The notes under the pieces are model-generated. The model worked only from the letters and a program-made list of their open reading frames with translations, had not been told where the DNA came from and ran no database searches. 64,000 nucleotides of DNA from Promethearchaeota archaeon (GTDB taxonomy: Archaea; Asgardarchaeota; Lokiarchaeia; Sigyniarchaeales; SOKP01). This document shows, piece by piece, positions 11,723-31,564 of the stretch (positions are counted from its first letter, which is position 1; each line of letters begins with the position of its first letter). The translations under genes and the position numbers were made by a program. The stretch covers positions 96,001 to 160,000 of the forward strand of contig JAUVXW010000003.1 in assembly GCA_030603385.1 (NCBI GenBank). Direction: 5' to 3'.

Positions 11723-11799
11723 ATTAAATCCTTTTTTTCATAATTTTTCAATGTTTATATATTAATATTTTATTTTTCATTTACTCATTTATCTAAGAA

Positions 11800-14727: not shown

Positions 14728-14869
14728 TAATGATTCCCCTTTAAAAGAAAACTTTACAAGAAAAATTAAAATCAGTAATAATAGCAGTAGTGAAAATAGA
14801 GATTCAATTATAGCATATCCGTAATTACCAACTTGAAATGTTATTCCAATAATTTTTAATCCCTCTTAT

Positions 14870-15859
14870 TTATATATGTAATCGAGGATCTAAAGCATCC
14901 CTCAATCCATCACCTATTAACATAAACCCAATAGCTGTAATTGCAATAAAAAGCCCGGGCCAAAAAACTGCATAATATGCACCCCAATGACCCCTCCCAT
15001 AATTGATATCAGTGCCCCAATCTGCAAAAGATTCATCTCCTAATCCCAAGAAAGCAATGCCTACAAAACCTAAAATTGCACCTCCCATTGCTCCGAAGAA
15101 ACCAATGATGATAGGAGACATTGCATTTGGCAAAACATGTCTAAACATTACTTTAAATTTTTCCGCCCCACTAGTTATTGCAGCCTCGACATAGACATTC
15201 TGTTTTACTTGCAGCACTAGGGCTCTTACCCATCGAGTAGATCCTGGTATACTAAAAAGGCCGAAAAGTATCAGTATGTTATATAAACTATTACCAATGA
15301 GGGGTGCTACAATAATTACAAGAATTAATACAGGAAAAGAAAACCAAAAATCACAAAAACGCATTATTATTGAATCTATTTTTCCACCAAAATATGCAGA
15401 TATCGTCCCTACAGAAAGCCCTCCAAGGGTACCAATTATAACGGGTAAAGCCGCCGCTGTTAGTGCTGTTCTTGCGCCCCAAATTATTCTTCCAAGAATA
15501 TCAAATCCATATTCTGTTGTGCCTAATGGGTGTTCTGGCGAGGGGGGAAGGAATGGTGTCTCAGGGAGAAAATCGGGTGGTGTTAAATGATCTATTGTAA
15601 ATGTAGTTAACCAAGGAGCATACATACCCATAAAAGCAATGAATAAGATCATTACCATTCCAGCTATTGTCAAAGGCGTAAGTAGGCGTCTAAATAATTT
15701 CCTTTTAGATTTTATTTTCCCTATTTCAAATTCAGTAGCTTCAAATTCTGGATCCCGCCATCCAGGTACTAAGTAGAATTTTAACAATCTGGAGAACTTA
15801 TTCTTTTTGTCTGCTTGAGATTCATATCTTTTGGTTTCTTCTACAGAAATTTGCTTCAG
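14870..15859 (-). CDS. oppC: Oligopeptide ABC permease (OppC/DppC)
   Basis: PPSPEHPLGT..G.DI, EAA loop YVEAAITSGA, GDGLRDALDPR; ORF track starts at TTG 15787, but the frame is open to a CTG at 15859 behind an SD-like GGAAGTGA. Confidence 0.92.
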   Translation of the reverse strand: MKQISVEETKRYESQADKKNKFSRLLKFYLVPGWRDPEFEATEFEIGKIKSKRKLFRRLLTPLTIAGMVMILFIAFMGMYAPWLTTFTIDHLTPPDFLPETPFLPPSPEHPLGTTEYGFDILGRIIWGARTALTAAALPVIIGTLGGLSVGTISAYFGGKIDSIIMRFCDFWFSFPVLILVIIVAPLIGNSLYNILILFGLFSIPGSTRWVRALVLQVKQNVYVEAAITSGAEKFKVMFRHVLPNAMSPIIIGFFGAMGGAILGFVGIAFLGLGDESFADWGTDINYGRGHWGAYYAVFWPGLFIAITAIGFMLIGDGLRDALDPRLHI

Positions 15860-15883
15860 TTTTATTCACTTCCTTTATTTTTT

Positions 15884-16951
15884 TTAATACAAAATTCTTG
15901 GATCTATAATTGTATAGGCAACATCTGCAATGAGAGTTCCTGATATTATAATAATCGTTGAAAAAACAAGAAGTCCATTTATTACTAAATAGTCACCGCT
16001 TGTTATAGCTATCAGCATGGTGTATCCAAATCCAGTATAGTTAAATGTAACTTCTACATATAATGACCCTAATAGAGCTCCTGCGGTCCCTGCTATAACG
16101 AGATGACTGGTAGGGAGTATCGCATTTCGAAGAGCGTGTTTATTAATGACGTCTTTTTCCAAAACACCTTTAGCACGCGCAGTTCTAATATAATCCTGAT
16201 CCAGCACACCTAGCATACTAGATCGAGTCTGCCTCGTAATCCCAGATAAAGATACAAAAATCATACAAATTACTGGAAGAATTAAATGAACAAGTGTATC
16301 CCATAAATAAATCTGATCATTATACAAAATACTATCAATTAGTCTAAATCCTGTACCACTCCCTCCTGATGGAACCGGAGTATTCAATATCGGATTATTA
16401 GGTAATAACACCTCAATAAAAAATTTCTCATGGGTAAATGTCCTTAATTCAGAGCCAATAAATAATTGTAGCAGGGTGGCAATATAAAAGATTGGAAATC
16501 CTGCTCCAACGATTGCTATTCCTCTAATTAATGAATCTTTTGGCGTATCTTTATGTTTTGCAGAGGTAACCCCAAGTTTAATACCGATAATTGGTACTAT
16601 TATAATCGAAAATAGCATCAACTCTATCGTCTTTGGAAAAATCTGAGCAATTAATTCAATTACAGGTGTGTTTTCGGCTATAACAAACGATTCACCCCAA
16701 TCTCCAGCGAAAAACCTTCTAAGATATATACCGAGTTGTACATACCATGGATCGTAGAAACCAGATCTTCGCAATTCTGCTTCATATCTAGCACGGTCTA
16801 CCACAGTCCCAGGAATCTTATTCAATGCAGGATTAATAGACATCTGGTGAGATAAAATCCATGTAAATATCAATACTGCTATAAGAATAGGAAACATTAG
16901 TAAAATTCGTTTAATAACATATTTTATCATATTTCGGGCTTGACGAGTCAT
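15884..16951 (-). CDS. oppB: Oligopeptide ABC permease (OppB/DppB)
   Basis: KYVIKRIL, GDWGES, P.TIEL, QDYIRTARAKG, KHALRNA, IDPRI. Confidence 0.95.
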   Translation of the reverse strand: MTRQARNMIKYVIKRILLMFPILIAVLIFTWILSHQMSINPALNKIPGTVVDRARYEAELRRSGFYDPWYVQLGIYLRRFFAGDWGESFVIAENTPVIELIAQIFPKTIELMLFSIIIVPIIGIKLGVTSAKHKDTPKDSLIRGIAIVGAGFPIFYIATLLQLFIGSELRTFTHEKFFIEVLLPNNPILNTPVPSGGSGTGFRLIDSILYNDQIYLWDTLVHLILPVICMIFVSLSGITRQTRSSMLGVLDQDYIRTARAKGVLEKDVINKHALRNAILPTSHLVIAGTAGALLGSLYVEVTFNYTGFGYTMLIAITSGDYLVINGLLVFSTIIIISGTLIADVAYTIIDPRILY

Positions 16952-17128: not shown

Positions 17129-17140
17129 TTACGTTCGTAA
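17129..17140. promoter_or_regulatory. Palindromic operator-like site TTACGTTCGTAA in the divergent oppB/oppA promoter
   Basis: Identical 12-mer at 21249-21260; lies just upstream of the BRE-TATA at 17153-17166. Confidence 0.6.
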
Positions 17141-17152
17141 TCCGTGTATTTT

Positions 17153-17166
17153 GAAAACTTTAAATA
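17153..17166 (+). promoter_or_regulatory. BRE-TATA promoter of oppA
   Basis: gaaaactttaaata, matching the archaeal purine-rich BRE plus TTTAAA box. Confidence 0.55.
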
Positions 17167-17266: not shown

Positions 17267-19747
17267 ATGAATAAATCTACAAAAAGTATAGCTTTTTTCT
17301 TATTATTATCGTCAATAATCCTTCCAATTCTTCCAACAATTACAGTAGCTCAAGAAGAGAACATCGTTTTTAAAGTGTCTGCTTCGGCATTGCCAGATGA
17401 ATGGGACCCCGTAGTTACAGATTGGTACAATGTAATATATGGATCATACGCGGTATTTGCGGTCCAGTATCCCATTGGAACACCTGCGTATTACACCGCT
17501 GGAACACTAGGTCCAATAGAGGATGAGTGGGTCGGAATACTCGCTACTGATTGGGAACTTGAACGTTGGCCATCCGAGGAAAATAGCGCAGATCCACCAT
17601 TTAATAACTCAGGTGGAATAAGAACAGCTACATTTACACTTCGAGAGAATGTGACATTCCACGATGGATCCGATTGGAACGCTACAGTATGGAAATGGAA
17701 TATCGATAGAATGAATATTATTTCCGGAAATTATACCGGTAAATGTCGAAACACAGATGATAATGAAGCTGAAGGAAATCTTATGAACACCATTATCGTA
17801 GAAGATTATAAAACCTATTTTACAGAAACATGGAATATGACAAAATTTGACTCTCCATATCTTGGACTTATTCCGCCTGATCTGGGAAAAGAACCTAAGG
17901 TTACCGATTATGCCTATTATAATCTTGGACCTAATGCGTCCCTTGTCGAATATCCCGGCGTCGATGATATTTTACCAAATAATACTATACGCAATCCTGC
18001 CCCTTATGGAGGCTGGGATTATGTATCGGCTGCTGCCATACATTATGCGCCTTATGATAGATATCCTATTGTAGACTACGTGGAGATCCTTGAAAACCCA
18101 AAATCAGGAGGAAAGATTAAGGTTTACTTTAACCACTGGACCACTTCTGGACTAGCTGGGTGGGTGAATATGCCTATGCTTTCATACCATTCATATAGAA
18201 ATAGTTACACCACTAGAGGTATTTACGGGTATGAAAACGGCGTTGATGATGACCGAAATGCTGGACCAGTCACTCACATGATTGGCACAGGTCCCTACAT
18301 TTATATAGAGCACGATGAAACAGGTACACCCGCAGGGGGTTATATGTTAAAAAATGAGAATTACTGGAATAAAACCCTTCTTGAAGCCGATGGTTGGTTT
18401 GATGTTGATAGATACGAAGTTATTAATTTCCCTACAGGTCAATTAGGAGAAGATTCTAAAAATACAGCCATGCTTACACATGCTATAGATTTTGCATACG
18501 ATTCCATGTATATGCCTTTAGATTATGATGCTGTGTTAAGAAACAAAAATATTAGGTATGAGTCTACTGGGGCTACAACATATAAAACGAATATCGTACT
18601 GAATAGCATCAATGAAACATGGTGGGCATGGCCTGGGTATGATGCTTGGAGGAAAGTTCAATATCCTCGTGCTGGTGATAAACCTGCTGGTGGTGTTCCT
18701 CGAGCAATGCGAAAAGCGATGGGTTATGCGTTTAATTATGATCTTATGATACATACTGCTTTAAATGATCGCGCAGTTCGAGGTGGTGGGGTGCTAGGTA
18801 GCCCCAATATATATTATAATGACAGTATTCCCTTGGCAGATTATAATGTAACGAAAGCACGAGAAATTCTGCTTACCACTGAGAGTGACATATCAGGAGA
18901 AGTTTATACTACCATAGATGTTAATAGTTCATATTGGCCCAATCCCGATCTTTATAATTTCAGTAAAATGTGTGCCGATAGAAGTTTGACCGCAAGTAGC
19001 TCGGATGCTGATTGGCGATATATTGCTGACAACAATCCAATATACACACTTAACTTTTATTGGGATTCTGCTCATGAAGATGTAAAGAGTGTACTTCTAA
19101 CTTCTCTTCGAAATATTGGGTGTACTTTAAAAGACAAAACTGGAGCTACAAATAGGGTTACCACTATAATTTGGGATACAGTCCGTATTGGTCATTTGAC
19201 CACATTTGATGGAATCTATAGTCTCTTTTCTTGTGGTGCGTGGGTAATGGACGAGGACTTATCTCATACATCCCCTGAGTTAAATCTCTTTTGGGCTCAT
19301 GTTGATCCCGATAAAGGGAGATGGCGAACTTTGGGCGGTGGAGGGATCACGAGTTGGCACTATTGGGGTAACTTCGGATTTAATTTTAATGAACGAGCTG
19401 ATTATTATAATGATCGTATGTGGACTTCCGATCCAATGGAAAGAAAAATCTGGATTAATAAATTAGCACACGTCGAGCAAACCGTTGTTTTCCCAAAAAT
19501 CTGGTGTTATGAAGCATTGGGCGGATGGGCTCTATGGAAAGACTGGGAATTTTTTACAGTAAAGAACACAGGAGGACATAATACGGGTCTCTTTGGAGGC
19601 ATTTCAATCAGTTTCTTGAGATATGTAGGTCTTCCAGAAGATTTCGCATTAATTCCCGGAGCTCCATTACTCGTTACATTGACCATTTCAGCAGTTTCGA
19701 CACTCGGTATAATATATGCGATAATGAGAAAGAAAAAACTCAAGTAG
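17267..19747 (+). CDS. oppA: Family 5 (Opp/Dpp) extracellular solute-binding protein with signal peptide and C-terminal membrane anchor
   Basis: Signal peptide MNKSTK..hydrophobic..TVA; LATDW, FTLRENVTFHDGS, IGTGPY, MRKAMGYAFNY; C-terminal IPGA + TM helix + RKKKLK (Loki-CTERM-like); SD aggaga upstream. Confidence 0.93.
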   Translation: MNKSTKSIAFFLLLSSIILPILPTITVAQEENIVFKVSASALPDEWDPVVTDWYNVIYGSYAVFAVQYPIGTPAYYTAGTLGPIEDEWVGILATDWELERWPSEENSADPPFNNSGGIRTATFTLRENVTFHDGSDWNATVWKWNIDRMNIISGNYTGKCRNTDDNEAEGNLMNTIIVEDYKTYFTETWNMTKFDSPYLGLIPPDLGKEPKVTDYAYYNLGPNASLVEYPGVDDILPNNTIRNPAPYGGWDYVSAAAIHYAPYDRYPIVDYVEILENPKSGGKIKVYFNHWTTSGLAGWVNMPMLSYHSYRNSYTTRGIYGYENGVDDDRNAGPVTHMIGTGPYIYIEHDETGTPAGGYMLKNENYWNKTLLEADGWFDVDRYEVINFPTGQLGEDSKNTAMLTHAIDFAYDSMYMPLDYDAVLRNKNIRYESTGATTYKTNIVLNSINETWWAWPGYDAWRKVQYPRAGDKPAGGVPRAMRKAMGYAFNYDLMIHTALNDRAVRGGGVLGSPNIYYNDSIPLADYNVTKAREILLTTESDISGEVYTTIDVNSSYWPNPDLYNFSKMCADRSLTASSSDADWRYIADNNPIYTLNFYWDSAHEDVKSVLLTSLRNIGCTLKDKTGATNRVTTIIWDTVRIGHLTTFDGIYSLFSCGAWVMDEDLSHTSPELNLFWAHVDPDKGRWRTLGGGGITSWHYWGNFGFNFNERADYYNDRMWTSDPMERKIWINKLAHVEQTVVFPKIWCYEALGGWALWKDWEFFTVKNTGGHNTGLFGGISISFLRYVGLPEDFALIPGAPLLVTLTISAVSTLGIIYAIMRKKKLK

Positions 19748-19774
19748 AATAGTAAATTTAAAGACTAAATAAAT

Positions 19775-19795
19775 CTTTTTTCTTTTTTTTTTTTA
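19775..19795 (+). terminator. Oligo-T terminator after oppA
   Basis: Two T runs (6 and 12 nt) about 30 nt after the stop codon. Confidence 0.5.
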
Positions 19796-19829
19796 ATGTC
19801 AAACAACACTCAACAGACAAAAATAAATA

Positions 19830-20532
19830 GGCTCTTTGAGCTTAATAGAAAGATTTATCCTCGTTAAATCCTTATTTTATTTAATGCCAACAAAGCCTTC
19901 TGAAATTAAAAAGGCTACAATCCATACTTATTGGAATTCTAAAGAAAGATTGATCTGCCCCTTATGTTCTTCTCAACTACAACATGAATTTAATAATGGA
20001 GGCAGGAAAATTATTACTTGAAAGGGACCTGTATGGGTATTGACTAATTATTATAGCTATATTAATCCTAAGTGTGAAATGCACGAGGCATTTCCAGTAG
20101 CATATCATTCAGTCATTCAACGGAAGCGATTTTCCTTGGAAGTATGGGCAAAAGTGATACAACATCATTTCAAGCATCAACTTAATTATTCCACCATCGT
20201 CAAACTCATGTGGGACGATTGGGACGTGTCAATTTCGAGGAACACGGTGAGAAACATCTGCGAATTTTTTGAAATGGCAGGAAAGCAATACACGGATAAA
20301 AATTCCTAAAAGGGGTAGAATCAAGCGGGAGAATCATTTTATCGCTTGATGGTGCCCAACCAGTTAAGAACGAGCCTTCTCTTTGGGTCTTTTCTGAGAA
20401 ATTGAAATGCTCTATGGCGTTCCCATCGTAGGCATCATTTCCGACAAGCAAAAAAGCATTGTGAATGGTGTCAAGCAATTCAAACCAGATATCCCACATG
20501 CATATTGCCAATACCACTTCCTTAACCACGTT
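19830..20532 (+). mobile_element. Truncated insertion sequence remnant (ISL3/MULE-like DDE)
   Basis: Candidate left end GGCTCTTTGAG at 19830 followed by a decayed transposase; no matching right inverted repeat seen; ends in a T run. Confidence 0.7.
19884..20532 (+). pseudogene. Transposase pseudogene
   Basis: CPLC Zn-finger start, in-frame TGA at 20019, HTH-like ISRNTVRNIC, frameshift near 20300, then ILSLDGAQP (first Asp), a second frame break, IISDKQ (second Asp) and CQYHF (CxxH); catalytic Glu region absent. Confidence 0.85.
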
Positions 20533-20631
20533 TTTTTTTGTTTTTGAAACTATCTTATGATTTTAAAAACAATAGTAAAAATATAGGGGATTATTAATCC
20601 TTAAATAATATCTAACTGAAGAATTAATTAG

Positions 20632-21147
20632 CTATATTTTTTTTCTGCCTACACTATATCGTTTAAGAAGCATACCACATATAGCCCCTGAGATGGCTAT
20701 TTCAAACAAAATAATTATGTCAAGCCATCCTCTAATATTACCAAATTTTAGGATAATCGGTTCTGTTGAAAAGCCAAACATAATAGCATAAAATATGAAA
20801 CCTTCTGCAATAAGAAGAGGTACCAGCCAGATGGATGCTTTAATTCCATAATGAGCTATTTCTTGTTTATATGTTAACACAAAACATACCAAAAACAACA
20901 CTAAAGCGGGTAAGAAGAAAGTTTTCAAATATGTTGTCCAAGTCCAAAAAAGTATGGTTCTATCCATATCAGTATAAGAGATCCATTCTTCATAATAATA
21001 ATCATACATCATAATGTTGGCGATAATTCCGTAATAACATAAAAAAGCAAAAATATACAAAAAAATAACACCCCCTTGTCGTCCCCAGTCAATTTTTATA
21101 TGACCTTTTGCTTTATAATCACTTTTTTCAATCTTCTCTGTTTCCAT
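20632..21147 (-). CDS. Hypothetical 171-aa membrane protein (about 4 TM helices)
   Basis: ATG start, four hydrophobic segments, basic C-terminus. Confidence 0.8.
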   Translation of the reverse strand: METEKIEKSDYKAKGHIKIDWGRQGGVIFLYIFAFLCYYGIIANIMMYDYYYEEWISYTDMDRTILFWTWTTYLKTFFLPALVLFLVCFVLTYKQEIAHYGIKASIWLVPLLIAEGFIFYAIMFGFSTEPIILKFGNIRGWLDIIILFEIAISGAICGMLLKRYSVGRKKI

Positions 21148-21248: not shown

Positions 21249-21260
21249 TTACGTTCGTAA
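21249..21260. promoter_or_regulatory. Palindromic site TTACGTTCGTAA upstream of the 171-aa membrane protein gene
   Basis: Identical to 17129-17140; upstream of a minus-strand gaaaagaatttaaatt BRE-TATA-like element at about 21207-21222. Confidence 0.6.
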
Positions 21261-21264
21261 AGTT

Positions 21265-23076
21265 TTACCTTACTAAGAAATCTTTAATTCGACTATCCCA
21301 AGTATTATATTTAGATGTTCCGTCCTTCCACTTTTGTTTTGATGCTTCTTTTAAGAATTCAATTCCCGAATTTTTAGGCAATTCTTCGATAATTTCAATA
21401 TACCGTGGTACATGAAAGTAGGCGAGATTATGAAACAAATAGTCGCTAAGTTCTTCATGGGTGATAGTGCGATTTTTCGCTTTCACAGCAATGATTTTAA
21501 AATTAATATCAGGATCATTTCCATTCCGAACAGGTATGACAGAAGATTCAATGATATTTGGGTGTGAATTTGCTACTCGTTCAATATCCTTTGTAAAGAT
21601 TACTTCATTGTTTTTGGATATGATCTCGTTTCTTTTCCCCTTATAATAAACATATCCCTCATAGTCAATATAACCAAAATCACCCGTGTAAACCCAATTA
21701 TCCCTTCCTATTTTTACATCAATTTTTCCAGGTTGTCTATAATATTCAAAAATTGCTCCGGATGCTCTTCGTACTGCTATTTCTCCAACGTTATTTGGTC
21801 CTGGAGGCATTTCTGTTCCATTAGGGCCGATAATTTTTAATTCTATGAAATCTAATGGTGTTCCAATTGACCCCATTTTTCCACCTTCAGAACCTAGTTT
21901 ATTGATAGTTACACCAATTCCTTCTGCATGTGACCAGCACTCATGTAAGTGGATTCCAAACCTTTCTTCAAAAGCATTCCATAAATCCATTCCTGCGCCA
22001 AAACCGTAAGCAAACTTGATAGAATGAACTCGATCATTGACTTTGGGCTTTTGATACAATAGATTTGTCAGATGGCTACTGAAATAACAAAAACAAGTGG
22101 GTTCAAACTTATGGATTTCCTCCCAGAATGTTGATGCATTAAAATCTTCAGTAATTATAAGCGATTTATCATAGACAATTGAAGGTAATACCACAAAAAA
22201 ATGGGCAGTGCTACTAGATAAAGACATAGGGCAATAGATTTTGGATGCTTTGTCTAATCCTATCTTCATCAATTCAAATCCTAAAGCAATACCTGCTAAT
22301 ACAGTATTTCTATACACAACTCCTTTGGGTTGTCCAGTCACACCACTAGAATATTGAATTTCTGTAGGATCATCACTATACATATTAATCTCGGGATTTT
22401 GAGAATTTGATGTAATAATTGACTTAAAATTGGCATAGTGATTCTCAAAATTAAAATCAACAGGAGCATTGTGTATAAGTACTTTCTTGATCTTCGGTAG
22501 ATTTTTACTAACTTCTATGTATTTGCTAAGAAATTTATAATCAATAATCAAAACTTCTGTATCACTGTCTCTTAATATATATTCTAAATGATTGTCACTC
22601 AAAAATGTATCAATAGGTACAAATACACATCCGGCTTTAGCTATTCCAAACCATGTAAAAAGGAATTCTGGGCAAGTTTCCATAAGTAACGAAATTTTGG
22701 GTGCTTTTAAATCCAATTTATTAGTCAATTCAAGAAGTCCATGAGCAAGTTTGTTGGAATTATTATTAATTTCTTCATAAGAATAGCTTTTGTCTTTAAA
22801 GTAAAGATATGGTTGATCTTTATTTGCCTTTGCTTTAATTTCTAATAATCTCGGAAGTGTAGCGTTCTCTATTCCAAAATTTCTTATTATTCTCGAACGC
22901 TCATCATTTCTGCTTATCTTTAAAGACCCTTCCTCTATTTCAATAATTACTTCTTCATTATCTTGGAATGGAAATAATTCATCTTTATAAACCTTGCTTG
23001 GAATATATATCCAAACACTTTTATAACCACCATTTCCAGATTTTTTTGTAGTTATTTTTCCTTTAGCTACTTTCAA
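21265..23076 (-). CDS. AbrB/MazE/SpoVT-like DNA-binding domain fused to a degenerate CaiC-like acyl-CoA ligase domain
   Basis: N-terminal KITTKKSG...SVWIYIPSKV..D..FPFQDNEEVIIEIEEGSLKI swapped-hairpin pattern; ANL fold with YSSGVTGQPKG and YTGD but eroded A5/A8/A10 motifs; TTG start behind gtga. Confidence 0.85.
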   Translation of the reverse strand: MKVAKGKITTKKSGNGGYKSVWIYIPSKVYKDELFPFQDNEEVIIEIEEGSLKISRNDERSRIIRNFGIENATLPRLLEIKAKANKDQPYLYFKDKSYSYEEINNNSNKLAHGLLELTNKLDLKAPKISLLMETCPEFLFTWFGIAKAGCVFVPIDTFLSDNHLEYILRDSDTEVLIIDYKFLSKYIEVSKNLPKIKKVLIHNAPVDFNFENHYANFKSIITSNSQNPEINMYSDDPTEIQYSSGVTGQPKGVVYRNTVLAGIALGFELMKIGLDKASKIYCPMSLSSSTAHFFVVLPSIVYDKSLIITEDFNASTFWEEIHKFEPTCFCYFSSHLTNLLYQKPKVNDRVHSIKFAYGFGAGMDLWNAFEERFGIHLHECWSHAEGIGVTINKLGSEGGKMGSIGTPLDFIELKIIGPNGTEMPPGPNNVGEIAVRRASGAIFEYYRQPGKIDVKIGRDNWVYTGDFGYIDYEGYVYYKGKRNEIISKNNEVIFTKDIERVANSHPNIIESSVIPVRNGNDPDINFKIIAVKAKNRTITHEELSDYLFHNLAYFHVPRYIEIIEELPKNSGIEFLKEASKQKWKDGTSKYNTWDSRIKDFLVR

Positions 23077-23112
23077 AAAATTATCACTTTACTTTTTATT
23101 AGATAGAATGCT

Positions 23113-23124
23113 TTACTACCGTAA
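23113..23124. promoter_or_regulatory. TTAC-N4-GTAA site (TTACTACCGTAA) between the TATA box and the start of the AbrB-ligase gene
   Basis: Matches the motif at 17129 and 21249; minus-strand ggaaaacattttaaag BRE-TATA at 23147-23162. Confidence 0.5.
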
Positions 23125-23212
23125 TTTAAGAGAGTAATCACTCTTTCTTTAAAATGTTTTCCATAACTCAGTGTGATCTATCAGCAAATTTTGACATCAA
23201 TTTTGATTTATG

Positions 23213-23224
23213 TTACAGCAGTAA
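23213..23224. promoter_or_regulatory. Second TTAC-N4-GTAA site (TTACAGCAGTAA) upstream of the AbrB-ligase gene
   Basis: Exactly 100 nt from the 23113 site. Confidence 0.45.
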
Positions 23225-23302
23225 GAACGAACTTAAAATATATATGGTATATAAAAAAAATAAAATGAAAATAAGGAGCTATATAATTATATATAATATA
23301 AA

Positions 23303-25234
23303 CTAAAGCTTTTGACCTATTGCATATCCCTCGTGAATTGCTTCTAACATTCTTCTAGCTTGTGAACAATCTCCTATCGCGTGTACAGTGGGTAATTTCT
23401 CCCTCAACATATTGAATAATTTATTTTGAGCTTCCATACCAGCAGCAATCACAACTGTATCAGCTTCAATTATTTCAGAGTTTCCTTCTCTTTCGATTTC
23501 TACTCCATCATCCGTTATTCTAATGACTTTAGAAGAAGTGTATTGTTTGATGCCCCATCTGGCTATTCTCATGGTGACTGACCATTTTGTTGCTGGGCCA
23601 ACATCTCGTGCAATCTTTGGCAACATTTCAACAATGGAAACATCCTTTCCTTGAGATCTTAGAAGCTCCGCCGTTTCACAGCCAATCATCCCCCCCCCTA
23701 TTATTACAACATTATCACCTGTGCTTGACATTCCCTTTAACACATCAACTGCCATAACAACATTTTCAGTGTTAATTCCTGGTATATCTGGAGTTATTGC
23801 TGTCGCACCAGTAGCTACGATAACCTCATCAGCGTTTTCCTTCAAAATAGAATCTACCGTTGCTTCTTTATTAAGCTGAACATTAATTTTTAATTTCTTC
23901 ATCTGATATATTAAGTAATGTGTTAAACAATTGGTCTCCTCCTTATGAGGGGCTAAGGACGCCGTTATTAAATTTCCTCCTAGCTGATCATTTTTCTCCC
24001 ATAGAGTCACTTTGTGACCTCTTAATGTTGCTACCCTTGCGGCTTCCATCCCAGCTGGACCACCACCAATAATGAGGATCTTTTTCAATTTTTCCGCTTT
24101 CTCTAATTTTTTACCTTCCTTACCCAATCCAGCGTTTACAGAACACACAATAGTTCCTGGACTAGCCATAGCATCAAAACAACGGCAACAAGCTATACAC
24201 ATATTAATATCGTCAAATTCACCTTTCATAGCTTTTTTTGGGAAATATGGATCAGTCAAAAATGGCCTGCCAAAATGTACCAAATCTGCTCTTCCGTCTC
24301 TTATAATCTCATTAGCAAATCGAGGATCATTGATTCTCCCTCCTGTCATAATAGGAACATTTATTATCTTTTTCATCGCTTCTGCTAAATATACAAATGC
24401 TCCCCTAGGAACTGACATAGGTAACATAGGTTTTGGTGATTCATGCCATCCTGCCCATGTGTGTATCACAGAAACTCCTGCTTGCTCTGCTAATTTTGCC
24501 ATAATTTGAGAATCCTCCAGAACTGTACCCCCATCTATGTATTCTTCAGCACTAATTTTATAGATTACAGGGAACTGGTTTTCAAGTTTTTTTCTAATAT
24601 TTTTAATAATTTCAACAATAAAAGTTGCCCGTTCTGCAGGAGATTTTCCTCCAAATCTATCAGTTCGTTTGTTGGTAAGAGGTGATCCGAATTGACTTAT
24701 TAAGTATCCTGTTGATCCCATTAATAATACACCTTTAAATCCTGCTTCAGCACTTCTTCTCGCAGAATCACCAAATCTTTCAACTAATTCTTCAACCTCT
24801 TCAGTAGATAATTCTCTTGGCATTTCACCTCTTCCTCTATAACCCGCAATGGGAGATGGTGCCACAGGTTGCATACCAGTAAGACCAGAATGGCAATATC
24901 TACCGCCATGTGATAATTCAATCATCGGAACAGATCCATTTTTATCAATGGCGTTCGCTAATTTTTTCAAACCTGGGGAATACTTATCATCATCAGTTGC
25001 TATCATACCTTTACCTGCTGTACTTCCTATCGGGTAGTCTATGATACCCATCTCTACACAAATAAAACCAGCACCTCCTTTAGCCCTTTCTACATAGTAA
25101 TCAACTAATTGGTCGGTTACATATCCATCGTAACCAAATCGGGTGTTCATAGGGGCCATCATTATTCTATTACTTATTTCAACATCTCCAATTGTTATTG
25201 GCTGAAATAAATATTTTACTTCTTCTACAACCAT
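23303..25234 (-). CDS. fadH: 2,4-dienoyl-CoA reductase-like NADH:flavin oxidoreductase (OYE barrel, 4Fe-4S, FAD domain)
   Basis: NRIMMAPM, YYVERAKGG, MGSTGYLISQF (FadH-type MGSxGY), GWHES, CIACCRC...CSVN, GGGPAGMEAA. Confidence 0.85.
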   Translation of the reverse strand: MVVEEVKYLFQPITIGDVEISNRIMMAPMNTRFGYDGYVTDQLVDYYVERAKGGAGFICVEMGIIDYPIGSTAGKGMIATDDDKYSPGLKKLANAIDKNGSVPMIELSHGGRYCHSGLTGMQPVAPSPIAGYRGRGEMPRELSTEEVEELVERFGDSARRSAEAGFKGVLLMGSTGYLISQFGSPLTNKRTDRFGGKSPAERATFIVEIIKNIRKKLENQFPVIYKISAEEYIDGGTVLEDSQIMAKLAEQAGVSVIHTWAGWHESPKPMLPMSVPRGAFVYLAEAMKKIINVPIMTGGRINDPRFANEIIRDGRADLVHFGRPFLTDPYFPKKAMKGEFDDINMCIACCRCFDAMASPGTIVCSVNAGLGKEGKKLEKAEKLKKILIIGGGPAGMEAARVATLRGHKVTLWEKNDQLGGNLITASLAPHKEETNCLTHYLIYQMKKLKINVQLNKEATVDSILKENADEVIVATGATAITPDIPGINTENVVMAVDVLKGMSSTGDNVVIIGGGMIGCETAELLRSQGKDVSIVEMLPKIARDVGPATKWSVTMRIARWGIKQYTSSKVIRITDDGVEIEREGNSEIIEADTVVIAAGMEAQNKLFNMLREKLPTVHAIGDCSQARRMLEAIHEGYAIGQKL

Positions 25235-25381
25235 GATTGCTTCTACCTTTTTATTATATAGTTTATATATTTCAACATGAATTTTATTAAAGTTTTCTAA
25301 TAATAATTAATACAATTTTTTCATTATCTTACCTAATATTTAAAACCAACTATTGTAAATTTACGGAAATATTGATAAATT

Positions 25382-27631
25382 ATGACTGAAAATGAACAGG
25401 TTAAGTTAATAAGAACTGCTTGTCCAGCACATTGCGGTATAGATTGTTGTGGAATTTTAGCTCATGTAAAAGGAAATCGTATTGTAAAATTGGAACCTGC
25501 GGACTTTCCTGATGAAAGAGATCGGAGGATTTGTTTACGTGGATTAGTTAGTTTAGATATTACTTATCACCCAGATCGTATTAAATATCCAATGAAACGA
25601 ATTGGAGAAAGAGGTGAAGGGAAATTTGAACGAATATCCTGGGAAGAAGCTTATATGATAATTGTTGCGAAATTTAAAGAAATTTCTGAAAAATATGGAT
25701 GGAAATCGATTGGATGGGTTTTAGGAGGACCTGGTGCAGGTACAACAAAATTTGGTGCATATCTTAGATTGGCAAGTTTAACGCAGAGTACTCGTGTGAG
25801 TGCTTGGGGCTATGGAGATGCAGGGTTACCCTGTGGAAGTAGAGTGATTTTTGGACACCAATTTCCTTATCTGTATTTGTTTGGGGAATTCTGGCAGAGG
25901 AAATATCCTGAGTTGTTAATGATATGGGGTACAAATCCAGCTGAATCCATGCCTTTACAAAATATGAGAAAAGTTTTAGATGCAAAAGAATATGGAACTC
26001 AGGTAATTGTTGTAGATCCACGTTTCACAGTTACAGCATCAAAAGCAGATGAGTATATTGGATTAAAACCGGGTACCGATAGTGCTTTAGCTTTAGGGAT
26101 CATGAATGTGATATTCCAAAATAACTTACATGATAAAGAGTTCATATTAGAACATACGAATGGAGCCTATTTAGTGAGAACCGATTCAGGAATAATGCTA
26201 CGAGGGAAAGATGTAGACGCAAAAAAGCCAGAAGCTTATATTGTATGGCATGAATCGTCTAATTTTCATAAAACACTATCTCGCACAAGTGTAAAAGAGG
26301 CAAGTCTTACTGGAACTTATATGATAAATGGAATTGAATGTAAACCAGTAATTCAGGTATTGATGGATCTAGCCTCTGAATATACCCCAGAAAAAACCGC
26401 AGAAATTACAGGGGTTAATAAGGATCTTATTGTTAAGTTAAGTAAGAGGATAGCTACAGCTGAAACAGTTAGATTTTTAACTCATATGGGTTTTACGAGA
26501 ACTTATCATGGAGATATTTCCTTAAGGGGTCTAATATCTGTAGCCGCGATTACCGGAAATGTCACTACATCAGTAAATTCTGGACATGTGCCAGGAATTC
26601 TAAATTGGAATCCTTTCCTTAAAGCAATTCCAGATAAACCCAGTTTTCATAGAATCGGTATCCTCAATCTCTATGAGGCTGTGATATCTAGTAATCCCTA
26701 CCCAATAAAGGCTCTCTGGTTTGCTTTCATTAACTTTTTGAACCAATGTGCAAATGCTAATAAAATAATTGAAGAGTTTTACCCCAAATTGGAGTTTATT
26801 GTACAAACAGAACTATTTTTAACACCCTCCGCTCGATATGCCGATTTAATCCTCCCGGTTTGTAGTTTTTTAGAATTTTCAGATTTTTTAGCTCAACCTT
26901 ATCCTTATGCACAACTTCAACAGAAAGTAATTGAACCATTATTTGAATCCAAATCAGATGCGACTATTGTTGCTGAACTTGCTGAATGTCTTGGGTTTGG
27001 TGACTACTTTAAGGGAGGAGAAGAGAGCTTGATAGATCTTATCATGGCGACCCGTTCCTTCGAAGGAATGACTCGAGAAACTTTAAAAACCCAAGCTATG
27101 AAATTACCATCACTACCAGAGGGAGCAAAATTTCCACTAAATTTTGGAACACCCTCTGGTAAAATTGAACTATATGCAGAACAGTTAGTAGAAGATGGGG
27201 AGGCTCTTCCAGTCTATTTGCCACCTATTGAAGCTCCAATTACTCCTGGTGAAAAGAAGTATCCTTTAACATTAGTGAATGGTCATAGTCGCTTCCGTAC
27301 GCATTCCATGTTTGCAAATGTCAAATCTTTGCTAGATTTGAACCCTGAACCCCTAGTTGACATCAATCCGATTGATGCTGAAACCAGAAATATATCAAAT
27401 AATGATATTGTGACTGTTTTTAATGATAGGGCTCGAACAACACTAAAAGCTAGAATCTCTGAAAGTGTTCAACCGGGCATACTTGATATTACTGAAGGCT
27501 GGTGGATAGAACAATTTAGAGAGGGAAGTTTAAACCATCTCACACACGATATTATTAATCCAGTACAAGATAAAGTTTACGAACCGAACATGCATATGAA
27601 CGATGTTGCCGTGGAGGTGGAGAAAAAATGA
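25382..27631 (+). CDS. Molybdopterin (Mo/W-bisPGD, DMSO reductase family) oxidoreductase catalytic subunit, no Tat signal
   Basis: CPAHCGIDC...CLRG Fe-S motif, HPDRIKYPMKR, WGTNPAE, VDPRFT, KPGTDSA, TPSGKIE, HSRFRTHS. Confidence 0.92.
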   Translation: MTENEQVKLIRTACPAHCGIDCCGILAHVKGNRIVKLEPADFPDERDRRICLRGLVSLDITYHPDRIKYPMKRIGERGEGKFERISWEEAYMIIVAKFKEISEKYGWKSIGWVLGGPGAGTTKFGAYLRLASLTQSTRVSAWGYGDAGLPCGSRVIFGHQFPYLYLFGEFWQRKYPELLMIWGTNPAESMPLQNMRKVLDAKEYGTQVIVVDPRFTVTASKADEYIGLKPGTDSALALGIMNVIFQNNLHDKEFILEHTNGAYLVRTDSGIMLRGKDVDAKKPEAYIVWHESSNFHKTLSRTSVKEASLTGTYMINGIECKPVIQVLMDLASEYTPEKTAEITGVNKDLIVKLSKRIATAETVRFLTHMGFTRTYHGDISLRGLISVAAITGNVTTSVNSGHVPGILNWNPFLKAIPDKPSFHRIGILNLYEAVISSNPYPIKALWFAFINFLNQCANANKIIEEFYPKLEFIVQTELFLTPSARYADLILPVCSFLEFSDFLAQPYPYAQLQQKVIEPLFESKSDATIVAELAECLGFGDYFKGGEESLIDLIMATRSFEGMTRETLKTQAMKLPSLPEGAKFPLNFGTPSGKIELYAEQLVEDGEALPVYLPPIEAPITPGEKKYPLTLVNGHSRFRTHSMFANVKSLLDLNPEPLVDINPIDAETRNISNNDIVTVFNDRARTTLKARISESVQPGILDITEGWWIEQFREGSLNHLTHDIINPVQDKVYEPNMHMNDVAVEVEKK

Positions 27632-28212
27632 GCAAGAGTAAACGGTTAGGAATGGTTGTCGAGCAAGAAAGGTGTATAGGATGCGAAGCATGTAGCGTAG
27701 CATGCAGAATAGAAAACAATTCAACTGATTTCTGGATAAAAGTTGAGACTCAAGGAACAAGTGTTAAAGATACTCCAGTAGGGAGATTTCCCGACTTAAC
27801 CTTGAATTTTCTCCCTAGATTCTGCAACCATTGTGAAAATCCACCTTGCATCGAATCTTGTCCAGTTGACGCTTTACAAAAACGGGATGATGGAATTGTA
27901 ATTTTAGACCAAAATCTATGCACTGGATGTCAAGCGTGTTTAGATGCTTGTCCATATGATATAATTGTGTTCGATGAGAATCATAACGTTGCCGAAAAAT
28001 GTAATCTATGTGCTCATAGGGTGGATAAAGGACTTGAACCCTTCTGTGTTCTTTGTTGTGAAGGACAAGCATTACATTTTGGAGATTTAAATGATCCTGA
28101 GAGTAATATTGCAAAATTACTCTCTAAAGATGATGTTTTTCAACTAAAACCAGACGAAGGAACAAAACCTAAGGTCTATTATATTCCTCCTAGACCTAAA
28201 AAAAGATTATAA
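27628..28212 (+). CDS. 4x[4Fe-4S] electron-transfer subunit (DmsB/NrfC-like)
   Basis: CIGCEACSVAC, CNHCENPPCIESCP, CTGCQACLDACP, CNLC...PFCVLCC; ATGA overlap with the upstream gene. Confidence 0.93.
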   Translation: MSKSKRLGMVVEQERCIGCEACSVACRIENNSTDFWIKVETQGTSVKDTPVGRFPDLTLNFLPRFCNHCENPPCIESCPVDALQKRDDGIVILDQNLCTGCQACLDACPYDIIVFDENHNVAEKCNLCAHRVDKGLEPFCVLCCEGQALHFGDLNDPESNIAKLLSKDDVFQLKPDEGTKPKVYYIPPRPKKRL

Positions 28213-28339
28213 ATCTCCTTTTTTCTAATAATTAGAAAAAATTATTATTTTATTTATGCCGTATTATTTGGTGAAAATTTAAGAATTGAAAAAAATCAAA
28301 AAAATAAGAATTGAAATTATTAGGCAAAAATTTGTGAGA

Positions 28340-28750
28340 TTATAATGCTCTTGGTATTTTATCTGCTTCAGATATACCAATAAATAGTAGACCGATTACA
28401 ATAATAGCAGATAAGATTAAAAAGTATAGATCTAATGATAAAACTGTTAGTAAAATAATTATTATCATACTAAATGAATAACTAATCCAAAGAAAAGATC
28501 GTGTCATTGATGTTCTTTGAAATCTATCTCCAGAAATTAAACCTACTATCCCTAATACTGCTGGTGGGATAAAGTATAGAATAACATAAATGTAAAATAT
28601 TAAAGTTTCCTTCTGAATAATTATATCTAGTGATTCATTTGATATACTTTGAAAAACTATAAAAATTAATGATGAAAATAAAAATCCAATGACGAAAAGT
28701 GATAGACTTATTATAGAATATGCATTATATTTTTCTATTTTTGTTAACAA
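28340..28750 (-). CDS. Hypothetical small membrane protein (about 4 TM)
   Basis: TTG start behind an SD-like GGAGGA; hydrophobic segments. Confidence 0.7.
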   Translation of the reverse strand: MLTKIEKYNAYSIISLSLFVIGFLFSSLIFIVFQSISNESLDIIIQKETLIFYIYVILYFIPPAVLGIVGLISGDRFQRTSMTRSFLWISYSFSMIIIILLTVLSLDLYFLILSAIIVIGLLFIGISEADKIPRAL

Positions 28751-28884
28751 TGTCGTTCCTCCATTTTTTTGTTATATATGTTTTTTCTTTTGATATATAA
28801 ATATTAAATAATGAATAATTAATAAAATGTTAGGATAACTAATTATTTTTCTAATTTTAATTAAAAAATTTTTTTTAAATATTA

Positions 28885-30189
28885 TTAAGCATCTGTATTT
28901 TCAATTATCATTGCAGTTCCTTGTCCACCGCCACAACACATTGTAGCGAGACCATATTTCGCGTTTTTCTCTTTTAAAATTCTTGCCAATGTACCAACTA
29001 TTCTGGGGCCTGTTGCTGCTATTGGGTGCCCTATTGAAATGGCACCACCTTTAATATTAATATCGTCAATTTTATCATCTAACCCAACTTCATGAACCCA
29101 ATTAAGTCCTACACTACCAAACGCCTCATTAATTTCCCAAAAGTCGATATCATCTATAGTTAAGCCCGCATGCTTTAACGCCATCCAAGTTGCAGGAACA
29201 GGACCTCTTCCCATAACTGTGGGATCCACCGCACCATATCCATTCGAAACAATACGAGCTAATGGATCAAGATCATGTTTTTTCATTGCATCTTCTGACA
29301 TTAATAACAAGGTAGCAGCTCCTGCATTAATTGGGCATGAATTTCCCGCAGTTACTAGGCCCAGTTCTGTCCCAAACTCTTTAACATATTCATCTTTACT
29401 CATGAGTGGTCTATAGTATCCACCATCCCAACCAGGTTTACTTAGAGCTCTTAAATCCTTTGTTCCTTCATAGGTGGCATTTTTCCTGACAGAAAGATCA
29501 TGCTCAATTAACATAGGAGTATCCTCATCACCTTCAGCATGAGCCATTACAGGGGCAATTTCTCCCTTGAAAAACCCTTCTTCTTGACCTTTAGCAGCTA
29601 ATTGATGACTGCGAACTGAAAATCTATCATAGTCTTCTTTAGTGAAAATACCAGCATTCATTTCTGAGAGTTTTTGAGCTGTTTGTAGCATTGAGTACGA
29701 GCAACGGAAATCAACGACATCATCAACAAAAAGCTCATGTCCTACCCTCATAGCAGGGGGTGTTTCTCTTACCGTTGGACGTTTTGATCGTGACATAGTA
29801 GCATTATTTTTCCCAGTCGCTATCACTACATCAGAATACCCCATTGCAATATTATTATATCCTATGGAAGCGCAGGTCATTCCTGAACCACATTGCCTAT
29901 CTAATGCGATAGACGATATTTTTGCTGGAAATTTCGCTAAAAACAGGGAATATCTTCCTCCAAAGGCTATATTTTCATAATTAAAATGAGTAGCTCCTAC
30001 ATAAAACTCATCTACATCTTCAGGTTTTACTTTATCTTTTAGACGGTTGTCAAACATATCTATTAATGTTAGAGCAGTCAATTCATCAGGACGTAAGGTT
30101 CCAAACGCATCTCTTGCTGGTTCTCTTGGTCGAGATCTTGAAAAAGGAGTTCTTACATAATCAGTAATATATACATCTCTTATTTTCAT
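28885..30189 (-). CDS. Thiolase (acetyl-CoA C-acyltransferase), catalytic residues intact
   Basis: DRQCGSG, NEAF, GHPIAATG, MCCGGGQG. Confidence 0.95.
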   Translation of the reverse strand: MKIRDVYITDYVRTPFSRSRPREPARDAFGTLRPDELTALTLIDMFDNRLKDKVKPEDVDEFYVGATHFNYENIAFGGRYSLFLAKFPAKISSIALDRQCGSGMTCASIGYNNIAMGYSDVVIATGKNNATMSRSKRPTVRETPPAMRVGHELFVDDVVDFRCSYSMLQTAQKLSEMNAGIFTKEDYDRFSVRSHQLAAKGQEEGFFKGEIAPVMAHAEGDEDTPMLIEHDLSVRKNATYEGTKDLRALSKPGWDGGYYRPLMSKDEYVKEFGTELGLVTAGNSCPINAGAATLLLMSEDAMKKHDLDPLARIVSNGYGAVDPTVMGRGPVPATWMALKHAGLTIDDIDFWEINEAFGSVGLNWVHEVGLDDKIDDINIKGGAISIGHPIAATGPRIVGTLARILKEKNAKYGLATMCCGGGQGTAMIIENTDA

Positions 30190-30229
30190 ATTTTTTAAAC
30201 CTCTTTTTATTTTTTACCTCATATTATAC

Positions 30230-31564
30230 TCACATATCTATATTCTCAATTACTACAGCTGTTCCCTGACCCCCCGCACATGACATAGCAGCAAGACCAT
30301 ATTTTGCACTCTTCTCTTTAAGAATTCTAGCTAATGTTGTCGTGATTCTCAGACCCGTAGCGGATGCTGGATTTCCTATCGCTATTGCTCCTCCATGAAT
30401 ATTCATTTTATTTTCCCAATCAATACCTAATTTATTAGCAGCATTAAGTGCTACAACACTAAAGGATTCATTAATTTCCCAAAAATCAATATCTCCCACT
30501 TTTAAACCTGCATGCTCTAAAGCCATTTTGGATGCCGGTACTACACCTCGTCCCCATACAGTTGGATCTACCCCCGCAAAACCAATTGATATAACCTTCG
30601 CCATGGGTTTCAAGTTGTATTCTTCAAGTGCATTTTTAGATGCTAATAAGCAAAGTGAAGCTCCATTACTTATTGGAGAACTATTTCCTGTTGTAATAAT
30701 ACCCTTCTCTGTTCCAAATTTTGCAATATATGCCTCTTTAGAAAGTACAGGATTATTATAGCCACCTGCCCATCCTGGAGTGCCTATGGAAGGCATATTT
30801 GCAATATTTTCCAAAGTAATCGCCTTTTTGATAGATTGATCTATTTCAACCTCAATTTGGGTATCAGGTTCACCTTCTTTATGCCCTTTAAGAGACATAA
30901 TTTCTTCTTTGAAATATCCATTTTCCAAAGCCTTCGCTGCTAAATTATGGCTACGTGTACTTAATTTATCCATTTCATCCTTTGTGAGAAGCTCTGCTTC
31001 TTCCTCAGCAAGTTTTTGAGCTGCTTGAAACAATAACCGACTCGTTTTCCAATCATATAAATCATCATTATACCATTTGCTATCTGGATCAAGCATAAGT
31101 TTATCTGGCGGCATCCCATATACTGTTACTTTTCCATCGTAACTATGCATTGGTACTCGAGTAAATTGATCAAAACCTAAGGATACCACCACATCGGAAT
31201 AACCCATTGAAATATTGCCAAAACCAACATGTAAAGTTGTCATGCCGGAACCGTCTTGTTTGTCAAATATCGTTGCAGGCACATGAAAGGGAAATTTTGC
31301 CATAAATATAGGAATCCTTCCCCCAAATGTCCCATGCTCATGTTGTAATAAAGTACTGCCAATCAAAACCTCAGAAACATTCTCACGTTTGAGTGTGCTT
31401 CCCTTGTTTGGTATACGTTTGTCAAACATATCTATCAAAACATGAGCTGCAAATTCTAATCCCTGCTTATTACTAAAAACATCATCAGCAGGATCCAGAG
31501 GATTTGCTTGAGAAAATGGTGTCCTTACATGGTCTACTAAATATACTTCTCTTGCTTCCTTCAT
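30230..31564 (-). CDS. Thiolase-fold protein lacking the catalytic Cys and His (pseudo-thiolase)
   Basis: DKQDGSG (Cys->Asp), NESF, GNPASATG (His->Asn), MSCAGGQG; full-length intact ORF. Confidence 0.9.
   Translation of the reverse strand: MKEAREVYLVDHVRTPFSQANPLDPADDVFSNKQGLEFAAHVLIDMFDKRIPNKGSTLKRENVSEVLIGSTLLQHEHGTFGGRIPIFMAKFPFHVPATIFDKQDGSGMTTLHVGFGNISMGYSDVVVSLGFDQFTRVPMHSYDGKVTVYGMPPDKLMLDPDSKWYNDDLYDWKTSRLLFQAAQKLAEEEAELLTKDEMDKLSTRSHNLAAKALENGYFKEEIMSLKGHKEGEPDTQIEVEIDQSIKKAITLENIANMPSIGTPGWAGGYNNPVLSKEAYIAKFGTEKGIITTGNSSPISNGASLCLLASKNALEEYNLKPMAKVISIGFAGVDPTVWGRGVVPASKMALEHAGLKVGDIDFWEINESFSVVALNAANKLGIDWENKMNIHGGAIAIGNPASATGLRITTTLARILKEKSAKYGLAAMSCAGGQGTAVVIENIDM

Follow-up and report, generated by a model that had tools for sequence, protein, structure and literature searches.

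An AbrB-like domain joined to a probable pseudo-acyl-CoA ligase: a candidate one-component regulator family of Lokiarchaeia

The gene at positions 21265–23076 (minus strand) of a 64,000-nucleotide stretch of Lokiarchaeia DNA, hereafter the window, encodes a 603-aa protein in which an AbrB-like domain is followed by a degenerate acyl-CoA ligase domain, and this protein is quite probably a one-component transcription regulator that acts locally and uses the pseudo-ligase as its sensor. Homologues, alignment, and selection agree that a DNA-binding-type domain and a degenerate enzyme domain are conserved in one chain. The earlier note on this DNA knew of no described regulator with such an architecture, and the literature searched, which leaves out most subscription journals, likewise yielded no paper on an AbrB–ligase fusion; the fusion is probably an undescribed architecture and a new regulator family. 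The note had also proposed an enzyme fold repurposed as the sensor of a transcription factor. The regulatory part of that proposal has gained from the AbrB-like fold, the selection acting on the gene, and a palindrome described below, and ligand sensing by the ligase domain is still something that we infer. Transcriptional control is little studied in Asgard archaea, and the fusion with its predicted operator would provide a testable protein–operator pair for this group.

Architecture of the fusion protein

The fusion gene opens with a TTG start codon, has no internal stops, and occurs once in its own genome (ORF and genome search), where some 20 further ligases are encoded, all without an N-domain of the fusion type. 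On the minus strand, the gene specifies a swapped-hairpin (AbrB/MazE/SpoVT-type) domain at aa 1–58 (22903–23076), predicted from models and from fold and family searches to dimerize and bind DNA; a linker at aa 59–71 (22864–22902) with a modelled helix at 59–67; and a complete ANL-superfamily (CaiC/PRK06155-like) ligase fold at aa 72–603 (21265–22863), recognized by Pfam, NCBIfam, and Foldseek.

Searched alone, aa 1–58 had no match in Pfam or NCBIfam, sequence searches of the PDB with the N-domain or with N-domain alignments gave no significant direct match, and the ESM Atlas gave no usable match, an absence that does not show novelty. Two models were used on the relatives of the domain, PF04014 (MazE_antitoxin) and TIGR01439 (AbrB); the query was unmatched by either, and weak matches were found in 3/49 fused domains (best E 0.04). 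A profile search recovered 416 relatives, those listed being mostly standalone proteins of 50–120 aa, and among 130 standalone relatives PF04014 matched 18 and TIGR01439 matched 6. The N-terminus, then, has no family match of its own, and its placement with AbrB/MazE comes from these standalone relatives and from the fold search. An identity as an NgoFVII B3-like domain, to which 8/49 domains gave weak Pfam matches (best E 0.006), was unsupported by the fold search and was rejected.

The AlphaFold2 model of the N-domain (mean pLDDT 84.5) consists of two hairpins around a short helix, in the order beta-beta-alpha-beta-beta, with DSSP strands at 7–13, 18–24, 43–48, and 51–56 and the helix at 27–30. 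When it was compared with 48,161 solved chains by VIA-align, 11 matches reached Z ≥ 2, ten of which were swapped hairpins, including VapB antitoxins, SpoVT, C56, AbrB, MazE, and 5itj, titled a histone-like protein. VapB2 was the best match (Z 4.4, rmsd 4.0, 54 aligned), 5itj gave Z 4.2 (rmsd 1.9, 46 aligned), and Foldseek placed MazE in its top row, below significance (E 0.45). These scores are low, as they should be for a 55-residue monomer; the swapped-hairpin class is supported by the uniformity of the match list, the scores alone not being decisive. Both the modelled topology and the list agree with the earlier reading of aa 1–57 as an AbrB/SpoVT swapped hairpin.

A homodimer model of the N-domain scored 0.43, against 0.00 for the best of three controls; in calibration, 20/30 solved homodimers passed the mark for this test, as did 1/23 single chains. 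Contacts agreed between runs at 92% or better, with pLDDT of at least 66. Strand 1 of each modelled chain pairs with strand 3 of its partner, and strands 2 and 4 each pair with their counterparts across the dyad, which in the model is the strand-swapped AbrB arrangement. The pass may stem from likeness to solved AbrB dimers. The domain is predicted to bind DNA, with indirect support from the palindrome, described below, that travels with the gene.

The ligase domain is matched by PF00501 above its cut-off (E 2.9e-49), and Foldseek paired it with anthranilate-CoA ligase (E 1.3e-38, TM 0.80 by target). Among NCBIfam models, it lies closest to long-chain and CaiC/PRK06155-type ligases, far under their cut-offs: its scores against CaiC-like models are 232–265 bits where 476–722 are required, and it stays below every curated cut-off in the best 25 matches. 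CaiC-like ATP-dependent acyl-CoA ligases (PRK08008, PRK06155) share with the fusion the full ANL fold and ancestry, and differ from it in lacking the extra N-domain and in the catalytic Lys, His, and A8 residues, which have been replaced in the fusion.

These replacements were located by alignment with 25 unfused CaiC-like relatives. Five altered motifs had been listed in the earlier note, and all are present (at 242–252, 379–386, 479–493, which holds two of them, and 566–576), the claim for the P-loop being the least well borne out. The A3 P-loop (aa 242–252; 22321–22353, minus strand, as for all that follow) is mostly kept and only mildly altered, with Val246 replacing the second Thr of 25/25 unfused proteins and Gly245, Gly248, Pro250, and Lys251 retained. 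In A5 (aa 379–386; 21919–21942), Gly has become Ser382, while the aromatic Trp381 and Glu385 are retained, and the ribose-binding Gly465-Asp466 of A7 (21679–21684) is kept. The A4 His, present in 25/25 unfused relatives and absent from the note's list, is Ser288 (22213–22215). A8 (aa 479–493; 21598–21642) carries Lys481 for an Arg found in 25/25 unfused proteins, Asn483 for Lys, Asn490 for a Gly also found in 25/25, and Val492 for Asn. Finally, within A10 (aa 566–576; 21349–21381), the position of the catalytic Lys, which is K or R in 25/25 unfused relatives, is occupied by Glu573; Lys481 and Glu573 bear out the loss of the A8 Arg and A10 Lys claimed for this protein.

The A10 Lys is the key catalytic residue of ANL ligases; A5, A7, and A8 hold the adenosine; and mutants of 4-chlorobenzoate:CoA ligase show a 500-fold loss at the A4 His and a 100-fold loss at the A8 Arg (PMC8388817). 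Since Glu has replaced the A10 Lys, Ser the A4 His, and the A8 loop is gone, catalysis by the fusion protein has probably been lost, with much of the adenosine pocket retained, and at these positions its motifs are not those of active ANL ligases. A literature search for a PrpE mutant with Glu in place of Lys yielded no paper.

Family history and selection

More than 120 fused relatives, most of them about 600–615 aa long, fall in one clade of Lokiarchaeia/Helarchaeota. Named relatives are mostly Promethearchaeota/Lokiarchaeia, and long fused frames in a GTDB sample were confined to the window's own class; the NCBI labels Thorarchaeota and Odinarchaeota on some fused records are not trusted. 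When only the ligase domain was used to build a tree, by a quick search and with unfused ligases as the root, all fused proteins form one clade (SH-aLRT 100), which argues against repeated independent fusions. Two nominally unfused rows, P0289 and P0286, are nested in the fused clade, P0289 being a 5′-truncated fusion. This basal gene (L164:5897–7756), its motifs intact, has lost its promoter and first AbrB strand, and its locus is without an operator site. In some genomes the fusion is present in two or three copies that have diverged, as with L009 and L049, about 19 kb apart on one contig, and in G264 and G282.

Out of 17 canonical catalytic positions, the fusion protein keeps 8, fused proteins a median of 11, and unfused proteins 15–17. 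The two earliest fused branches, several of whose members are labelled Helarchaeota, keep 16/17, and the remaining 52 fused rows keep 5–13. In the sister clade, the P-loop is intact and the A8 Arg is present in 34/36 members, with the A10 Lys in none. The supposition that homologues consistently lack both the A8 Arg and the A10 Lys thus holds for the fusion protein and fails for the sister clade and the nearly intact basal members; as these keep their motifs, only derived members are candidates for "dead" ligases. Because the basal branches keep 16/17 positions, the fusion would have come first and catalytic decay later, subject to the caveats of a quick tree. A basal fused member is 38–41% identical to its nearest unfused relatives.

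Purifying selection, which the earlier note had set against random decay, is evident throughout the family: dN/dS is 0.13–0.20 in pairs that include the window's fusion gene, the median over 263 pairs is 0.18, and length is near-constant. These values are far below 1, and the N-domain is conserved as well as or better than the ligase domain in most pairs. That the gene is a pseudogene in decay, or encodes a normal if divergent ligase extended at its N-terminus, is accordingly a reading that we find scarcely credible. It could draw on the database names of the relatives ("AMP-binding protein" and "crotonobetaine/carnitine-CoA ligase") and on a dN/dS exceeding that of the neighbouring enzymes (0.05–0.15), but it conflicts with the conservation of the N-domain and with the operator evidence, and the pseudogene version is refuted by the number of relatives, most of them full-length and near-constant in length, at a dN/dS far below 1. 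Many Lokiarchaeia genes labelled as acyl-CoA ligases are probably regulators.

The spread of motif states also bears on a bifunctional trigger enzyme, which would bind the operator and still carry out slow chemistry or a half-reaction, be it ATP binding, adenylation, or the conversion of acyl-adenylate to a thioester, its turnover being the signal. Trigger enzymes such as BirA, PutA, and NadR combine an enzyme and a DNA-binding domain in one chain and remain active, and we know of none in which either part is an AbrB domain or an ANL fold. The basal Helarchaeota-type fused members, which join 16/17 canonical positions to the operator, are likely to be in this state. Lys251, Glu385, and Asp466 are nearly invariant, Lys stands at 573 in a few close relatives, and the sister clade keeps its P-loop and A8 Arg, so that residual chemistry is conceivable; the Gly, Pro, and Lys retained in the P-loop, the Glu of A5, and the Asp of A7 would serve it, and unfused relatives tolerate Arg at A10 (15/25). 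For the window's member, it is nonetheless unlikely: the residues of both half-reactions have been lost (A10 Lys, A4 His, and A8 Arg/Lys with the loop), and their replacements vary freely in the clade, which fits relaxed constraint and not new chemistry. A regulator with a pseudo-ligase sensor is the reading pursued below.

A candidate operator and its gene contexts

Aligning the regions upstream of fused genes brought out the palindrome TTAC-N4-GTAA, the top-ranked of all 4+4 palindromes, with a spacer of strictly 4. Of 55 distinct fused genes, 37 have a perfect copy no more than 100 bp from their start, compared with 0.4% of shuffles, and many of the other 18 end operons whose first gene has one; as the genomes compared are kin and drafts, the palindrome counts given here and below are not independent and are descriptive. 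Whereas 1.05 perfect copies would be expected in 64 kb, the window has four (at 17129, 21249, 23113, and 23213), each of them intergenic and all inside a 6.1-kb span. The whole genome has 12 intergenic copies, 4 of them in the fusion locus, where like palindromes have a median of 20, and 5 of its 3301 genes have the palindrome within 100 bp upstream. A global regulator was rejected as the owner of the site, there being no genome-wide enrichment.

The copy at 23113–23124, a candidate autorepression operator, is 37 bp upstream of the fusion start. A conserved, putative BRE/TATA-like element (23147–23162) precedes it by about 22 bp, and a one-mismatch copy adjoins it at 23126–23137. Another perfect copy, farther upstream of the fusion gene (23213–23224), is imperfect in close relatives; both candidate operators lie in the region 23100–23230 that the earlier note had named for EMSA. 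Just past the fusion stop, a third copy (21249–21260) stands 102 bp upstream of the gene for a 171-aa hydrophobic membrane protein of no known family (20632–21147, minus strand). The fourth (17129–17140) occupies the divergent promoter between an Opp/Dpp-type ABC operon of two permeases and two ATPases (9959–16951, minus strand) and an 826-aa family-5 solute-binding protein, or SBP (17267–19747, plus strand), and precedes a BRE/TATA-like element at 17153–17166 by 12 bp. On the basis of Pfam and the palindrome, the membrane protein, the SBP, and the ABC operon are predicted targets.

Several features of the importer region may be mentioned in their own right. Both ATPases (9959–14727, minus strand) have hydrophobic N-terminal extensions of about 630 and 250 aa without a Pfam match, and a 950-aa protein beside the operon (6796–9648, minus strand) has no Pfam match either. 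An 884-bp gap separates the SBP stop from the membrane-protein gene (19748–20631) and is much shorter in relatives; its short ORFs, one of them without a Pfam match, resemble a transposase remnant, and its first 184 bp recur, incompletely, at two other places in the genome.

In related loci, 79/86 palindromes lie outside scored ORFs, preceding the fusion and neighbours particular to each context, among them the DUF2284–corrinoid protein–RACo operon for corrinoid activation (21/22), the SBP promoter (7/7), and the membrane-protein gene (9/12). Basal, intact-looking fused members (L109, L166, and L167) carry it as well. A perfect palindrome was found at 0/7 testable SBP promoters, three of them with the same divergent layout, in five genomes in which neither domain search found the fusion (drafts 84–100% complete), and at 0/3 positions upstream of DUF2284 genes outside the RACo–fusion operon. 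The palindrome is, by these comparisons, a conserved candidate operator at the fusion's own and target promoters. Should that reading be true, it would mark importers and corrinoid-activation operons that answer one common signal.

Might the palindrome belong to another transcription factor, the AbrB-like domain being a dimerization or non-specific nucleoid-binding module? The histone-like title of the structural match 5itj would suit this idea, as would the lack of a defined consensus site in some AbrB-family proteins, for example, SpoVT (PMC5061766). It is very improbable, given that the palindrome is not enriched genome-wide but clusters at the fusion gene, that it accompanies the fusion in five or more gene contexts, that it is missing from homologous promoters where the fusion was not found, and that no gene other than the fusion is common to all contexts among the conserved neighbours compared. 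Recognition of the palindrome by the fusion protein is the reading retained here.

Around the fusion, the window encodes acyl-CoA catabolic enzymes, including acyl-CoA dehydrogenase, thiolases, enoyl-CoA hydratase, and a flavin oxidoreductase. Control of the flavin oxidoreductase, molybdoenzyme, and thiolase genes was considered and rejected, the palindrome being found at 0/8, 0/9, and 0/3 of them, respectively, with none within one mismatch in the window. These genes make up the interval 23303–31564 (a flavin oxidoreductase, a divergent molybdopterin oxidoreductase with its 4Fe-4S partner, and two thiolases), which is without a palindrome and is conserved beside the fusion in 6–9 loci. Relative to locus L003, dS is 0.14–0.20 for the flavin and molybdoenzyme genes versus 1.31 for the fusion, hinting at their recent exchange.

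Elsewhere, the contexts of the fusion vary widely among chemically unlike operons for lipid-type catabolism, corrinoid activation, and ABC import. Intact-looking fused members head operons with genes for an NMO-family flavoprotein, an SDR, an enoyl-CoA hydratase, and ChsH2-like and thiolase-like proteins. The conserved DUF2284–corrinoid protein–RACo operon stands directly upstream of the fusion in L012–L053; it occurs in 23/101 genomes of the family, nearly always fusion-bearing ones, often with a two-subunit CoA-transferase ahead and with no methyltransferase among its conserved neighbours. Separate unfused ligases adjoin the fusion in several loci.

Such diversity beside a single operator, and the frequent presence of an adjoining unfused ligase, would accommodate a regulator whose ligase fold responds to no small molecule and instead serves as an oligomerization scaffold or binds a partner, for which the 171-aa membrane protein or a genuine ligase could be proposed. 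That the membrane protein occurs in only one of the gene contexts, that the adenosine-pocket residues are held across the fused family, and that enzyme folds have a precedent as sensors in BzdR (PMC3602430) combine to make this alternative improbable, and a sensory role for the pseudo-ligase domain is preferred.

Proposed mechanism and known systems

In the proposed mechanism, two N-domains would interlock as an AbrB-type swapped-hairpin dimer that binds the dyad TTAC-N4-GTAA, as the co-occurrence of domain and site implies. At the fusion's own promoter, the palindrome would cover the expected transcription start, and this placement suggests autorepression, or negative autoregulation. In the SBP and membrane-protein promoters, the palindrome is predicted to precede a BRE/TATA-like element by 12–34 bp, where archaeal activators usually sit, and this position suggests activation of importer and membrane-protein genes. 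The contrast between activation at the importer and repression at the fusion gene is thus suggested by TATA boxes predicted in DNA of 30% GC.

The ligase domain of the window's member would have lost adenylation, its fold being kept by selection as a sensor. Its likeliest ligand would be a carboxylic acid of the surrounding beta-oxidation-type genes, possibly together with AMP or ATP, since the domain retains its adenosine pocket but no longer has the A8 loop on the CoA side. An acid, with or without a nucleotide, is given an even chance; an acyl-CoA is possible with less conviction, a nucleotide alone is doubtful, and a ligand of some other kind is more doubtful still. Carnitine or crotonobetaine, for which the case consists of database names only, was discarded. 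The dead ligase would sense imported acid, perhaps with an adenine nucleotide, and tune its uptake; speculatively, ligand binding might move the small C-subdomain and send a signal through the linker helix.

As to its history, a CaiC-like ligase would have acquired an AbrB domain once and have functioned first as a self-regulating enzyme, a stage suggested by the motifs and operator that the basal members keep; stepwise catalytic loss and redeployment beside different operons would have followed. Whether this is the first transcription factor family with a catalytically dead ANL sensor, specific to Asgard Lokiarchaeia and endowed with a defined operator, a natural series from active self-regulating ligase (basal Helarchaeota-type) to pure sensor, and ANL domain rotation as its allosteric switch, is in our estimate evenly balanced.

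The fusion would work like BzdR, whose DNA-binding domain is a helix-turn-helix, is built like SpoVT, and is a member of neither family. BzdR and BoxR of Azoarcus similarly combine a DNA-binding domain with a catalytically lost enzyme fold as the effector-binding domain and control catabolic genes of CoA-activated acids, and BzdR, with its inactive shikimate-kinase fold as sensor, is the model case for the passage from enzyme to regulator (PMC3602430). The fusion, in contrast, joins AbrB to an ANL ligase; Pfam and Foldseek find no shikimate-kinase-like C-terminal domain in it and an ANL fold instead, which places it outside the BzdR family proper. The enzyme-to-regulator route is widely assumed and rarely tested, and the active BzdR intermediate was hand-built in the laboratory (PMC3602430), whereas the intact-looking intermediates of the fusion family are natural. 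Intact-looking, partly eroded, and strongly eroded fused members share one operator and could be compared side by side.

SpoVT of Bacillus also has an AbrB-type N-domain followed by a C-terminal domain whose proposed role is ligand binding (PMC5061766), but its sensor is a small GAF domain and that of the fusion a 530-aa enzyme fold, and it has no known consensus site, whereas the fusion family has a sharp 12-bp dyad. AbrB, MazE, VapB, and archaeal C68 (PMC5569661) have the same fold and, as modelled here, the same dimer topology, and their binding next to their own promoters is matched by the site inferred for the fusion. They differ in being small proteins or antitoxins; the fusion family is without an accompanying toxin gene, none having been found among the conserved neighbours (ORFs ≥ 110 aa) of 57 fusion loci. 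Finally, a large family of standalone AbrB-like proteins (L102–L108; P0136–P0270) with the conserved pattern IP-x5-D-x2-FPF is mostly missed by Pfam, and some of its members are present in other Asgard genomes.
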